Source: Escherichia phage dhaeg. From it: DNA of 64,000 nt. The position numbers and the translations under genes were made by a program. The DNA lies in the sequence record MN850609.1; one strand, written 5' to 3'. Shown piece by piece: positions 29,944 to 33,061 of the stretch; position 1 is the first letter of the stretch; the number at the start of each line of letters is the position of its first letter. Below the pieces are notes generated by a model. It was not told the DNA's origin. It did no database searches and worked only from the letters and a program-made list of their open reading frames with translations.

Positions 29944-30398
29944 TGAAAACCGAAGATTTTGCTCAAGGTCTATACGTTGCTGCAAAATTCTCTGAATTGA
30001 CTTTAGATGCGCTGGAAAATCTTCAGCGCACTTTAAAGGTTCCTAATCCAGTTCCTCGTGAAAAATTCCATTCTACAATCTGCTATTCAAGAGTCAACGT
30101 TCCATACACTGTTGCATCCGGAAGTTTCGAAGTTGCTTCGTCAGGACATCTTGAAGTGTGGAAACATGGTGATTCTCCTGTCTTGGTACTGGTTCTCGAT
30201 TCAGAGTATCTTAAATGCCGCCATCAGTATGCTCGTACCTTAGGTGCTACGCACGATTTCGATGATTACACCCCTCATATCACATTGTCTTATAATGTAG
30301 GACCTCTTACCTTTAGTGGAGATGTCCAGATTCCTGTCGTTTTAGATAGAGAATATAAAGAACCCTTGAAGCTCGACTGGGCCGAGGATTTAAAGTGA
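29943..30398 (+). CDS. 57B: gp57B = Acb1, 2H-phosphoesterase-fold cyclic-oligonucleotide nuclease (anti-CBASS)
   Basis: 151 aa (T4 57B 152 aa); two H-x-(T/S) motifs ([16 protein letters not shown]); position after 57A. Confidence 0.8.
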
Positions 30399-30604
30399 AA
30401 TCATACAAAGAATTCTTAACAGAAGCAATGGAGTCAGCCTCTTCGGTGGCAATAGAGGTTTCTTGTACTCCTGAAGAATTTAAAGAAAGCCTGAAAGGTA
30501 TAAATTGGCTTTCGGGAGAGTTATCTAATGGGGTTGCCTACTTCTTTGGCCCGCAATCAGATATAGATAGCTGGGTCTCTGAAAATTCTTCATGGCTAAA
30601 ATAA
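30395..30604 (+). CDS. internal-protein-like small protein with capsid-targeting prefix (GTG start)
   Basis: GTGA overlap with the 57B stop; N-terminus (M)[10 protein letters not shown] resembles the T4 IP capsid targeting sequence MKTYQEFIAE, with a gp21-type (L/I)-x-E cleavage site. Confidence 0.6.
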
Positions 30605-30613
30605 TTTAAAAAT

Positions 30614-30644
30614 GTTTTACAAAGGGCTTTAGTGATGATACTAT
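30614..30644 (+). promoter_or_regulatory. T4-type early promoter cassette (GTTTTACA ... TGATGATACTAT)
   Basis: -35-like and extended -10 elements followed by AGGCCTATCAAAAAC leader. Confidence 0.7.
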
Positions 30645-30682
30645 AGGCCTATCAAAAACAAACTAACCAAATGGAAATCAAA

Positions 30683-30961
30683 ATGAAAACTTATCAAGAA
30701 TTTAGTAAATCCCAAAAAGTGGCTCCTATCACTGAAGCCAGTGTTATGAGTGAAGTTATAGCCCTAAACAAAGGCCGTGAAGGTAAACCGGTTATCGGTC
30801 TTAATGGTGATGAACTTAAAGGTACTGTTTATCTGGGCGACGGTTACCATGCTAAAAAAGACGGTGGGAGCATTGTTATTTCCCCGGCTCAAGAATCTTC
30901 TGTAATGAAAACCGTTTACATCGCCACCAAGCACTTTGATATTTTGAAAAAAGCACTTTAA
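30683..30961 (+). CDS. internal-protein-like protein (capsid-targeting prefix MKTYQEF)
   Basis: 92 aa from the second ATG; starts MKTYQEFSKSQKVAPITE-A; occupies the ipI locus position of T4. Confidence 0.65.
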   Translation: MKTYQEFSKSQKVAPITEASVMSEVIALNKGREGKPVIGLNGDELKGTVYLGDGYHAKKDGGSIVISPAQESSVMKTVYIATKHFDILKKAL

Positions 30962-30965
30962 AGTT

Positions 30966-30995
30966 ATTTACAACGGGCTCTAGTGATGATACTAT
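30966..30995 (+). promoter_or_regulatory. T4-type early promoter cassette
   Basis: ATTTACAACGGGCTCTAGTGATGATACTAT, near-identical to 30614-30644. Confidence 0.7.
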
Positions 30996-31031
30996 AGCCC
31001 TATCAAAACAAATGAGTGATTGGAGAATAAA

Positions 31032-31217
31032 ATGAAACGTTGTGAATTAATTAGAAATGTTACTGCACTGGCCGCCGTTACTGCTTTTGGCTTTAGTATG
31101 TTTGCAGGATTCATGTTGGATTTGCTTACAACTTCCGAGAATATAATCTCTTTAGTAGTGGCATTCTTAATTGGTTCAATCTCTTTCGTTATGGATAAAA
31201 TCTCTAAAGGTGAGTAA
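31032..31217 (+). CDS. small membrane protein (2 predicted TM helices)
   Basis: 61 aa from the ATG preceded by GGAGAATAAA; hydrophobic stretches ALAAVTAFGFSMFAGFML and LVVAFLIGSISFV. Confidence 0.6.
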   Translation: MKRCELIRNVTALAAVTAFGFSMFAGFMLDLLTTSENIISLVVAFLIGSISFVMDKISKGE

Positions 31218-31218
31218 A

Positions 31219-31599
31219 ATGTATAAAGTGTATGCGGATTATCAAGCAAATCCATCTGAAAAACCAGATTGCCAAATTGGGTGGGCGCATGACACCCTGC
31301 TTGAAGCGGTAAATGAAGCACAGAAATTAGGATATAGTTATGTAGATATTGTTCAACCGGGTGGAACAGTTATTACTCTTGAAGAATTCAAGAATATCAA
31401 AACAAACTTTTTGCTCTTTGCCGGTGATAACTATTATCCTCGTGGCGGTTATGCTGACTTAATCGCAAAGGCCGCGACTGAAGATGAACTGCGCGATATC
31501 ATTAAAGAAAACGAGAATAAGCCTTGTTACGGTTCCAATCGTTTTGACTGGTGGCAGATTGTCAATGCCAATACCCACACTATTGTAGACGAGGGTTAA
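31219..31599 (+). CDS. hypothetical protein
   Basis: 126 aa from the ATG (GGTGAG SD) just after the upstream stop; no motif recognised. Confidence 0.55.
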   Translation: MYKVYADYQANPSEKPDCQIGWAHDTLLEAVNEAQKLGYSYVDIVQPGGTVITLEEFKNIKTNFLLFAGDNYYPRGGYADLIAKAATEDELRDIIKENENKPCYGSNRFDWWQIVNANTHTIVDEG

Positions 31600-31884
31600 A
31601 TGTTATACGTTAAGGTTACTAATCCAGAGAATGGCTATAAATCCGATCAGGTTGCAGCCGAGTTGTTGATTCGAAATTACGGCAAAGATGCCGTGCTTGA
31701 TGTTCAACAGGTTAATATTGGCCGTAGTTCAAGCGATGTTAAACTCAAAGTTAACAGCCATCGCTATAATTCTGTTAACTTTACTTTTTATACCGCAACT
31801 GAAAATGGATTGGTCGAATACGACATCTTTAAAAACCCTTTGAAGATTGCTTCTATTAAACTTGACTATATTAATATGCTTTAA
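31600..31884 (+). CDS. hypothetical protein
   Basis: 94 aa, TAAATG junction with the upstream ORF. Confidence 0.55.
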   Translation: MLYVKVTNPENGYKSDQVAAELLIRNYGKDAVLDVQQVNIGRSSSDVKLKVNSHRYNSVNFTFYTATENGLVEYDIFKNPLKIASIKLDYINML

Positions 31885-31901
31885 GAATTATGTGATATTA
31901 T
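31877..31901 (+). promoter_or_regulatory. candidate MotA-dependent middle promoter for the tRNA cluster
   Basis: TGCTTTA (MotA-box consensus) - 12 bp - TATTAT, 70 nt upstream of the first tRNA. Confidence 0.55.
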
Positions 31902-31969
31902 TACTCTATCATTAATACCCTCTATTACCAAAGGTTCTTCCCTCAAAGAGCCTTTCATAATAGAATTAA

Positions 31970-32043
31970 GGCCCTGTAGCTGGACGGTCAAGCGAGCGAC
32001 TCATAATCGCTGGATGGTGGTTCGATTCCACCCAGGGCCACCA
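31970..32043 (+). tRNA. tRNA with CAU anticodon (Met, or Ile if C34 is modified)
   Basis: Cloverleaf by hand: acceptor GGCCCTG/CAGGGCC, anticodon stem AGCGA/TCGCT, loop CTCATAA, T-arm GGTGG-TTCGATT-CCACC, encoded CCA. Confidence 0.9.
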
Positions 32044-32047
32044 ATTT

Positions 32048-32122
32048 GGATGTGTAGCTCAGTGGTAGAGCAGTTGACTGTTAATCAATTGGTCCATGGT
32101 TCGAATCCATGCATGTCCGCCA
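32048..32122 (+). tRNA. tRNA-Asn (GUU)
   Basis: Acceptor GGATGTG/CATGTCC (two G-U pairs), D-arm GCTC..GAGC, loop CTGTTAA, T-arm CATGG-TTCGAAT-CCATG, encoded CCA. Confidence 0.9.
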
Positions 32123-32126
32123 AATA

Positions 32127-32202
32127 CGAGGCATAGCTCAGAAGGAAGAGCAAGGACCTTCTAAGTCCTGGGTCGTAGGTTCGATCCCTACTGTCTCGAC
32201 CA
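32127..32202 (+). tRNA. tRNA-Arg (UCU)
   Basis: Acceptor CGAGGCA/TGTCTCG, D-arm GCTC..GAGC, anticodon stem AGGAC/GTCCT, loop CTTCTAA, T-arm GTAGG-TTCGATC-CCTAC, encoded CCA. Confidence 0.9.
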
Positions 32203-32371
32203 AACAAGAAACCGGGTCGCTACCGGTAAGTCGTCGGACTGAAGTTCCCTGAATAAGACCCGACTTTAAGGCGTACATGAGTTCCTCTTAAAGTCCCTTA
32301 TCTCACAGCTGAAACGGCGCACCGAACACTTGCCTAGCAGGTGGAACCCCGACAAGGTTACCCTAGGTTAA
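32203..32371 (+). ncRNA. ORF-free structured RNA downstream of the tRNAs (candidate equivalent of T4 stable RNAs C/D)
   Basis: About 170 nt without an ORF, relatively GC-rich, several local hairpins (ACCGG-GTCGCT-ACCGGT at 32210-32226; CTTTAAGG...CCTCTTAAAG), co-transcribed with the tRNAs and closed by a terminator. Confidence 0.5.
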
Positions 32372-32401
32372 AGGCCCTTCCGAAAGGTTGGGCCTTTTTT
32401 G
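32372..32401 (+). terminator. rho-independent terminator
   Basis: AGGCCC-TTCCGAAAGGTT-GGGCCT followed by TTTTTT. Confidence 0.8.
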
Positions 32402-32409
32402 TATAAATA
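32402..32409 (+). promoter_or_regulatory. late promoter TATAAATA upstream of the 207-aa internal-protein-like gene
   Basis: Exact TATAAATA 29 nt upstream of the ATG at 32438. Confidence 0.65.
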
Positions 32410-32437
32410 GATAAGTTAATTAACACAGGAAACAATA

Positions 32438-33061
32438 ATGAAAACTTACAATGAATTTTTGAACGAAAGCGTTCTGACTGAAGCCAGCGTGCGCATGACT
32501 AAAGATATGTGGCAAGCTGCTTATGATAAAATTTCCGGGACTAAAACCACTACCGAGTTCTTTAAAAACGTTTATGATATGTATGGTTTTGATACTAGTA
32601 ACCAGAAAGAATATTACAAAGCTTCCAAAGCTTTTAAAGATATCGTAGCCGGTGGCGCTACTAAACCTGCTAAACCAGCTAAAGCTCCTGTTGCTAAACC
32701 TGCAGCCCCAACCAAAGTTGCACCACCTAAACCTGCGGCAGCACCTAAAGCAGAGCCTGTAAAAGAAGCTCCTAAACCTAAAATCAAGTTCGACACCAGC
32801 ACTATTGTTAAAAAATATAACCAACTGGCTTCTTTGGTTTCTGAAATAGAATCCGAAACTAAACACCTTGTTCGTGAATTCAATGTTCTTCGTAACGGTC
32901 AACACATTAACAACCTGGACACACCAGACCTTTATCGTCTCTATCTGACGGTTGAAGGCCTTAAGTACACCCAGCCTATGCGCGAAGAAATTGACAACAA
33001 ACTTCGTCAAGCACGCCGACTGGCCGGTGACGCAGCTCAGTTCGAAAAGACTCGTAAATAA
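32438..33061 (+). CDS. internal-protein-like protein with K/P/A-rich low-complexity core
   Basis: 207 aa; starts MKTYNEFLNE-S (capsid-targeting prefix); KPAKPAKAPVAKPAAPTKVAPPKPAAAPKAEPVKEAPKPK tract; own late promoter. Confidence 0.7.
   Translation: MKTYNEFLNESVLTEASVRMTKDMWQAAYDKISGTKTTTEFFKNVYDMYGFDTSNQKEYYKASKAFKDIVAGGATKPAKPAKAPVAKPAAPTKVAPPKPAAAPKAEPVKEAPKPKIKFDTSTIVKKYNQLASLVSEIESETKHLVREFNVLRNGQHINNLDTPDLYRLYLTVEGLKYTQPMREEIDNKLRQARRLAGDAAQFEKTRK

Follow-up and report, generated by a model that had tools for sequence, protein, structure and literature searches.

The 64-kb stretch of Escherichia phage DNA analysed here (the window; 100% identical to Escherichia phage dhabil, MN850621, whose annotation was compared) carries three open reading frames (ORFs), named P1, P2 and P3, whose products begin with a capsid-targeting sequence (CTS) like that of the internal proteins (IPs) of phage T4. 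CTS-tagged internal proteins have been known as a class since the 1990s; dhabil itself is placed in the Straboviridae, Tevenvirinae, genus Dhakavirus, JS98 group. We consider it likely that dhabil has no CTS-tagged internal proteins besides these three, which would act by the mechanism and in the roles proposed below. Since the leader positions mapped in T4 are in place, cleavage sites follow them and the protease is encoded in the window, the best reading is that all three would be packaged, trimmed and ejected. Judged from sequence, this would hold almost certainly for P2 and very probably for P1 and for P3. The following features carry the argument.

30395-30604, + strand: P1, 69-amino-acid (aa) precursor; leader residues 1-10 at 30395-30424, with an LTE↓A site (the arrow marks the predicted cut)
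30683-30961, + strand: P2, IPI orthologue of 92 aa; leader residues 1-18 at 30683-30736, with an ITE↓A site
32438-33061, + strand: P3, 207-aa precursor; leader residues 1-15 at 32438-32482, with sites LNE↓S and LTE↓A
61-696, - strand: gp21 prohead core protease, a 211-aa ORF (Pfam Peptidase_S77, E=1.1e-103, 345 bits)

An earlier note on this DNA had pointed to three N-termini, and all were correctly read: (M)KSYKEFLTE↓A in P1, with a GTG start, MKTYQEFSKSQKVAPITE↓A in P2 and MKTYNEFLNE↓SVLTE↓A in P3. Their likeness to the T4 capsid-targeting sequence is equally sound, as MKTYQEFIAE is the N-terminus of T4 IPII and IPIII and T4 IPI starts MKTFKEFTSTTTPVSTITE↓A. Translated in six frames, the 64 kb contain the motif K[ST]Y.EF three times, and in all three cases a start codon directly precedes it; the expectation from six-frame amino-acid frequencies is ~0.07 occurrences anywhere and ~0.003 after a start codon. 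Mutagenesis of T4 IPIII has assigned positions 4 and 7 to targeting and positions 8 and 10 to processing by gp21 after (L/I)-x-E, and the first ten residues of that protein are enough for incorporation into the prohead core (PMC9026906). The targeting heptads of P1 (MKSYKEF), P2 (MKTYQEF) and P3 (MKTYNEF) all carry an aromatic residue at position 4 and Phe at position 7, and the three leaders continue with Leu or Ile at position 8 and with Glu at position 10 or a later I-T-E↓A. The gp21-type (L/I)-x-E sites that had been claimed are present as LTE10↓A in P1, ITE18↓A in P2 and LNE10↓S and LTE15↓A in P3, and the gp21 gene is where it had been placed, on the minus strand.

The mapped positions are also those that evolution has retained. 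Leader positions 4, 7, 8 and 10 are kept in P1 homologues down to 53% identity and in P3 homologues from six genera down to ~35% identity, position 7 being Ile in phage Marfa. The targeting positions (4 and 7) are thus kept in five of the six aligned P3 family members; more distant members, such as P0032, also deviate. A scan of the rest of the 165.6-kb dhabil genome found no further ORF with the strict prefix, and P1, P2 and P3 therefore make up the full set.

Relaxed CTS-like N-termini, with Val in place of Phe at position 7, are found on two dhabil ORFs outside the window: dhabil_92 (53 aa, - strand, MKSFKEVMNE↓D) and a UvsW.1-like ORF of 75 aa (+ strand, the second one annotated 'DNA helicase', MKSFKEVIYE↓A). 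These resemblances may be due to chance, or the two ORFs may encode further head-targeted peptides.

In the mechanism we propose, the first ~10 residues of each precursor (M-K-[ST]-[YF]-x-E-F-[LI]-x-E) would dock the protein into the gp22 scaffolding core of the prohead. gp21, the predicted enzyme for removal of all three leaders, would then cut after Glu10 of P1, Glu18 of P2, and Glu10 and Glu15 of P3, and the mature proteins would stay in the head with the DNA until ejected into the cell at infection. In the T4 head, ~1000 IP molecules stay with the DNA, their lysines touching DNA phosphates, and are then injected; the CTS is the sole part common to the IPs (PMC3012670).

P2 and P1, two small candidates next to gene 57B

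P2 is clearly an orthologue of IPI, as far as sequence can tell. It matches the Pfam family IPI_T4 (PF11634) with E=1.4e-26 and 92.8 bits (cut-off 25), its residues 19-92 aligning to positions 1-75 of the 76-position model, so that the match begins exactly at the predicted mature N-terminus. It also matches the nuclear magnetic resonance structure of IPI* (PDB 2JUB, E=8.1e-23) and falls in phrog_4363 ('internal virion protein'), and GenBank labels it 'internal head protein'. The predicted mature form has 74 aa and an isoelectric point (pI) of 9.0. The earlier view that none of the three proteins resembles IPI, IPII or IPIII thus fails for P2; neither P1 nor P3 matches IPI_T4, and P3 has no IPIII homology beyond the first 26 columns. 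An upstream in-frame ATG at 30671, which would place the tag four residues in (MEIK-MKTY...), was rejected as the P2 start, having no Shine-Dalgarno sequence; the ATG at 30683 is preceded by GGAAA, as in T4.

What P2 does can be argued from its T4 relatives. T4 Ip1, Ip2 and Ip3 were each reported in 2025 to inhibit a different GmrSD type IV restriction enzyme (PMC12373910), and by analogy P2 probably inhibits a GmrSD-type type IV restriction enzyme as well. Because IPI specificity is narrow, however, GmrSD inhibition is not transferable as such from T4 IPI to P2, which is ~57% identical to it. Within the IPI family, four substitutions between RB69 and T4 have already been discussed as possibly altering specificity (PMC6024577), and the divergence between P2 and T4 IPI is large against those four. 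Dhakaviruses, moreover, are predicted to carry arabinosylated 5-hydroxycytosine, not glucosyl-hydroxymethylcytosine, in their DNA (PMC13326640), so the target enzyme of P2 may differ from that of T4 IPI.

The upstream region of P2 contains one further feature:

30616-30644, + strand: sigma-70-type early promoter, TTTACA-17-TACTAT with extended TG (from a promoter scan and from alignment with the T4 ipI and trna.4 upstream regions)

This promoter is repeated at 30967-30995 and 33122-33149 within a ~70-bp cassette (GTTTACA...GTGATACTATAG.CCTATCAAAAC), whose three copies span 30602-30685, 30959-31034 and 33105-33187 and lie before P2, trna.4 and e.8. The cassette is also present in T4, upstream of ipI and trna.4, and near-identical copies bracket P2. 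They look like the promoter/stem-loop cassettes of T4-type genomes, which have been proposed to drive modular shuffling. That the ip locus is hypervariable, as the earlier note stated, is borne out at this slot: it holds IPI in dhabil and other ip genes in sister phages, namely a gene for an unrelated 97-aa CTS protein in JS98, and one for an Ip8-like 74-aa protein together with Ip9 in IME08 and UP19. At ≥95% identity P2 is found in only five phage records, the other ~290 matches being the ~57%-identical IPI genes of T4-like phages.

P1 is, on comparative sequence evidence, a real gene that lacks an annotation; it is annotated neither in MN850621 nor in either JS98 record. Its GTG start overlaps the TGA stop of 57B (GTGA at 30395-30398), which implies translational coupling of P1 to 57B, and a GAGG Shine-Dalgarno sequence ends 7 nucleotides (nt) upstream of the start codon. 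Overlap with the stop codon of the preceding gene recurs at all loci examined, that gene being 57B in dhabil, JS98 and EcS1. The homologues in IME08, EcS1 and Citrobacter phage CF1 start with ATG (ATGA overlap), as does, by its annotation, that of Citrobacter phage Merlin, whose leader is one residue shorter. The ratio of nonsynonymous to synonymous substitution rates (dN/dS) is 0.08 against IME08 and 0.05 against EcS1; in the comparison with CF1 synonymous sites are saturated and 55% of residues are kept. Across the family alignment M1, K2, E6, F7, E10 and A11 are invariant.

P1 matches phrog_23867 (unknown function; E=2e-42). Its family is represented in 28 phage records, from Dhakavirus, Kagamiyamavirus EcS1, an Erwinia phage and Citrobacter Moonvirus (at 53% the lowest identity), and was not found in Tequatrovirus records. 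In CF1 the P1 gene is flanked on both sides by a further CTS gene, the stop and start codons of neighbours overlapping. The predicted mature protein is small and acidic (59 aa, pI 4.1, charge -6), and its AlphaFold2 model, at a predicted local distance difference test (pLDDT) score of 83, has a beta-alpha-beta-beta-alpha fold. Since three T4 IPs are GmrSD inhibitors (PMC12373910), any further CTS-tagged protein becomes a ready anti-defence candidate, and the role most readily proposed for P1 would be that of another injected anti-defence effector; we put this forward tentatively, at somewhat under even confidence, and assign no target.

P3, a predicted late protein of two helical domains and a linker

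The third protein stands apart in its transcription and in its architecture, for which the relevant features are these.

32370-32400, + strand: intrinsic terminator ending the tRNA / rnaD-rnaC unit (hairpin of -17.8 kcal/mol, z=-3.0, then a U-run)
32402-32409, + strand: T4-type late promoter TATAAATA, an exact match 28 nt before the P3 ATG
32483-32656, + strand: P3 N-terminal three-helix domain, residues 16-73 (AlphaFold2 helices 22-30, 38-49 and 56-71, pLDDT 82-86)
32657-32791, + strand: P3 Lys/Pro/Ala (K/P/A) disordered linker, residues 74-118 (pLDDT <50)
32792-33058, + strand: P3 C-terminal helical domain, residues 119-207, the best-conserved part (FDTS..KKY..L..IE...LRNGQ.INNL.TP.LY)
33062-33087, + strand: UUCG-tetraloop hairpin directly after the P3 stop (-15.2 kcal/mol, z=-3.0)

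The exact octamer before P3 had been noticed earlier and is indeed there. As a bare string it is not rare, with 14 occurrences in the window against 8.3 +/- 3.1 in shuffled sequence, and we rejected it as significant by itself. We call it a promoter because it adjoins the intrinsic terminator and because (T/C/G)ATAAATA is kept in six genera: the motif stands at the equivalent position in JS98, JS09, Kosakonia 305, Marfa and UFV01, and upstream of P3 homologues there is always a G+C-rich hairpin and T-run, with (T/C/G)ATAAATA following at 24-33 nt before the ATG. The combination of terminator, late promoter and 3' hairpin makes P3 an autonomous late transcription unit inside an early-gene region. 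The accompanying argument, that a late promoter is what one expects of a head-packaged protein, does not survive comparison with T4, where ipI, ipII and ipIII, like P2, have sigma-70-type promoters and show no TATAAATA in the upstream sequence read.

JS98 and UP19 carry an extra gene between the rnaD/C region and P3, encoding a predicted membrane protein of 184 aa (orf136), which is absent from dhabil. In JS98 orf136 is preceded by a second copy of the terminator-plus-TATAAATA cassette of P3, and this duplication may mark the insertion of orf136.

P3 matches phrog_2280 (unknown function; E=3e-59) and occurs in 138 phage records, as against 814 that match the surrounding region; every one listed gives it as 'hypothetical protein'. 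An exhaustive HMMER scan of 1.84 billion cluster representatives returned only 14 P3-family clusters, so the family is small, and every named source is a T4-like phage. The homologues read come from six genera, Dhakavirus, Mosigvirus (JS09), Kanagawavirus (Kosakonia 305), Marfavirus, Karamvirus (UFV01) and Kagamiyamavirus (EcS1), and there is another in Yersinia phage fHe-Yen9-01. The gene lies between the rnaD/rnaC region and e.8, with the same synteny in all P3-bearing phages examined. The family leader reads M-x-x-[YF]-x-[ED]-[FI]-[LI]-x-E, followed a few residues on by (I/L/V)-[TSN]-E↓[AS]; E15 is invariant and A16 at least 90% conserved. With its conservation in at least six genera, its own late cassette and its unusual two-domain-plus-linker design, P3 is the notable member of the set.

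The AlphaFold model of P3, built on 17 sequences, has a mean pLDDT of 73. Its C-terminal domain is modelled over residues 121-205 at pLDDT 80-94, and the two folded domains amount to 6.6 and 10.8 kDa. Between them lies the K/P/A tract, which the earlier note had rightly picked out and which occupies residues 76-115 of the 207-aa protein. Its basic residues are Lys, with no Arg, and residues 74-115 carry a net charge of +8. In 15 family members the densest 40-residue window has a net charge of +4 to +9, with 3-12 Pro and 6-13 Ala and essentially Lys only, so that composition is kept in the family; sequence and length drift. Weak, sub-threshold matches of the tract were to the Pro/Ala linkers of E2 acyltransferases and ribosomal stalk proteins. 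The description of the tract as histone-H1-like holds for composition only: it is 24% Lys, its repeats reach at most 2.6 copies of a 9-bp unit, and it is a disordered inter-domain linker. P3 was accordingly rejected as a true H1-like or repeat protein, with no winged-helix linker-histone domain found in Pfam and no repeat array. A metagenomic P3-family protein of 202 aa (P0029) has the leader, N-terminal domain and K/P/A linker of P3 and a wholly different C-terminal domain, which indicates domain shuffling behind the linker.

As a remote homologue of IPIII, P3 was likewise rejected. It gave no hit to PF26861 (E≤0.1), hhalign of the two families aligned 26 N-terminal columns with a probability of 34%, and BLASTP aligned the leader alone. 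PDB sequence searches with P1 and P3, as single sequences and as family profiles, gave generic hits only, and a Foldseek search of P3 against BFVD returned its own family alone. In phage fHe-Yen9-01 (KY593455, 74513-75079; P0044) a P3-family protein is encoded alongside a member of the IPIII family that is 55% identical to T4 IPIII. Since one phage can carry both of these large, basic internal-protein families, P3 is not simply a replacement of IPIII.

The mature protein is predicted to have 192 aa, a pI of 9.7 and a charge of +13. P3 would most likely be a bulk DNA-associated internal protein, its linker lysines contacting phosphates, a role that fits a conserved, basic, late protein with a Lys-rich flexible linker. 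Its passage through portal and tail would be that of beads on a string, and a host factor might in addition be a target of the helical domains. IPI* (8 kDa) has been argued to pass the ~30 Å portal while folded (PMC9026906), and the folded domains of P3 are about the size of T4 IPI*. By analogy with IPIII, P3 may have an anti-restriction role as well.

Packaging and injection weighed against other explanations

Several observations weigh against packaging and injection of P1 and P3 as effectors. P1 has no promoter of its own, and its expression during head assembly would need read-through, for example from the late promoter at 26979. P3 is not at the T4 ipII/ipIII locus, and T4 has no annotated gene between rnaC and e.8. 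Arms-race effectors would be expected to be hypervariable, and both proteins are instead conserved within the genus. Homology gives neither a function: Pfam, NCBIfam and PADLOC were uninformative, and both PHROGs are families of 'unknown function'. Literature searches on Dhakavirus, JS98 and fHe-Yen9-01 turned up neither virion proteomics nor N-terminal sequencing nor genetic work on P1 or P3 from any phage; the virion proteome that exists for phiR1-RT is that of a phage with no P3 homologue. P3, finally, contains V-x-E motifs at 110, 136 and 147, and cutting there would fragment it.

Such fragmentation would suit a prohead core or scaffold accessory protein like T4 gp67, gp68 and gp22, which the leader would recruit and which would be degraded or expelled in maturation, being neither injected nor an effector. 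P3 is largely helical, with one long helix of 32 residues and a weak coiled-coil match (to COMP, E=0.039, below threshold); it has a late promoter, as morphogenetic genes do, and its conservation is also what a scaffold role would lead one to expect. The V-x-E motifs are, however, not conserved in the family (VSE becomes VRD, IND or LSD, and VKE is absent in JS09 and Kosakonia) and lie mostly within confident helices. The protein is strongly basic, and its Lys-rich linker suits DNA contact; the gene sits in the accessory tRNA/e region, outside the head-gene cluster (61-2976, - strand); and its presence in only 138 phage records, when 814 match the region around it, marks it as not core. On balance we think a scaffold role unlikely. 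We give slightly less credence still to the idea that the shared N-terminus is just a recombination or translation-initiation cassette that was inherited along with the 5' ends of the genes, which would leave P1 or P3, or both, in the cytoplasm and never packaged. The ip genes are known to shuffle via conserved flanking sequences, P2 and P3 hardly differ over their first 21 nt, and a CTS-like N-terminus also occurs on unlikely IPs, such as the UvsW.1 homologue (MKSFKEVIYEA). Yet the six invariant leader and cleavage-site residues of P1 persist where its synonymous sites are saturated, against EcS1 and CF1, and P3 homologues have changed K2 and T3 while keeping the mapped positions 4, 7, 8 and 10 (apart from Ile7 in Marfa) and the TE↓A site. 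Least credible of all is that P1 is a spurious ORF overlapping 57B. The missing annotations and the GTG start would favour this, and against it stand the dN/dS of 0.05-0.08, the ATG starts of the IME08, EcS1 and CF1 homologues, the well-placed GAGG, the PHROG match and the confident model; we regard it as very improbable.

Packaging, trimming and ejection of all three proteins thus remains our preferred reading, and it adds nothing categorically new: P2 is already annotated, and P1 and P3 are new members of the known CTS class. Current annotation misses both as candidates, P1 not being called as a gene in this record and P3 being labelled 'hypothetical', in coliphages of the type used in therapy whose DNA modification is unlike that of T4. 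The main value of the result lies in two concrete candidates for experiments like those that assigned functions to T4 Ip2 and Ip3. The leader rule M-x-x-[YF]-x-[ED]-[FI]-[LIV]-x-E, combined with a downstream TE↓A and a gp21 gene, could also serve to annotate injected proteins across the Straboviridae. Should P3 prove to pack DNA in bulk, the role that IPII and IPIII play in T4 would have a second, unrelated solution.

Arabinosylated 5-hydroxycytosine DNA is predicted for Dhakavirus, Mosigvirus, Kagamiyamavirus, Kanagawavirus, Marfavirus and the Tegunavirus-like fHe-Yen9-01 (PMC13326640), and all six of these genera or groups are among those that bear P3. The P3 family could be adapted to this DNA chemistry, in a correlation that is confounded by phylogeny. 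In the same speculative vein, and with low confidence, T4-like phages other than Tequatrovirus might have in this family a distinct, conserved class of injected proteins that ride on the DNA, in which the linker would hold on to the genome during ejection and the helical domains would enter first and shield the DNA from a modification-dependent nuclease, or disarm it.

Gene setting and comparison with known systems

On the + strand the genes follow in the order gene 1 (dNMP kinase), 57A, 57B, P1, P2, trna.4/.3/.2, tRNAs, a stretch resembling non-coding RNA, P3 and e.8. Those flanking the three candidates are as follows.

29943-30398, + strand: gene 57B, encoding Acb1 (anti-CBASS; Pfam Acb1 PF23474, E=6.8e-59, full length)
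31032-31884, + strand: trna.4, trna.3 and trna.2
31970-32202, + strand: tRNA-Met, tRNA-Asn and tRNA-Arg
after tRNA-Arg and before P3, + strand: non-coding RNA-like stretch of ~200 nt, with a terminator at its end

The head genes gp20, gp68 and gp21 are all on the - strand, within 61-2976 at the start of the window. Dhabil has a homing endonuclease gene (27636-28286) that separates gene 3 from gene 2 (DNA end protector); JS98 lacks it at the equivalent position. For the product of 57B the dhabil record gives 'hypothetical protein' and RefSeq records give 'RNA ligase', despite its full-length Acb1 match; Acb1, P1 and IPI evidently form a small anti-defence islet.

Homology to the T4 stable RNAs rnaD (species 2) and rnaC (species 1) is seen in the ~160-200 nt after tRNA-Arg (32203-32365). 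The initial ~60 nt hardly differ from T4 rnaD, and the aligned T4 rnaD-rnaC stretch is also matched by a CACTTGCC..GCAGGTGGAACCCC block. The region measures ~200 nt in dhabil against 119 + 139 nt in T4, so that the RNAs appear shortened or fused. An Rfam search of the ~200 nt after tRNA-Arg matched no family, and MN850621 has no annotation for this RNA stretch.

The T4 gene order, 1-57A-57B-ipI-trna.4/.3/.2-tRNAs-rnaD/rnaC-e.8, is that of dhabil, to which dhabil adds P1 and P3. The known ip loci are next to 57B, where T4 ipI and here P1 and P2 lie, or between denV and e. P2 shares with T4 IPI the design of the leader, ~18-19 residues ending in ITE↓A, as well as its place next to 57B and trna.4 and the early-promoter cassette upstream. 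P1 shares with the variable T-even Ip proteins, such as Ip8 and Ip9, a size class (60-100 aa), the leader and the locus downstream of 57B, and in Citrobacter phage CF1 it stands in overlapping tandem with genes of this type. It differs from them in forming a distinct family (phrog_23867) that is kept in every Dhakavirus examined instead of being swapped, and its acidic character contrasts with the basic IPI*, IPII* and IPIII* of T4.

For P3 the nearest counterpart in T4 is IPIII, in general character and not in descent. Both have a leader of the form MKTY.EF[LI].E, a short KD-x-W likeness is found just past the P3 cleavage site, and the mature protein, at 192 aa, pI 9.7 and +13, is close to IPIII* (183 aa, pI 9.65, +10). 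P3 differs in its locus, in its promoter, which is late where that of ipIII is sigma-70-type, and in its two helical domains joined by a K/P/A linker. The linker, in turn, resembles the tails of histone H1 and the Lys/Pro/Ala DNA-binding tails of bacterial proteins in being rich in Lys, Pro and Ala, positively charged and, in the model, disordered; unlike H1 tails, it contains ~24% Lys, has no regular repeat and lies between two folded domains.

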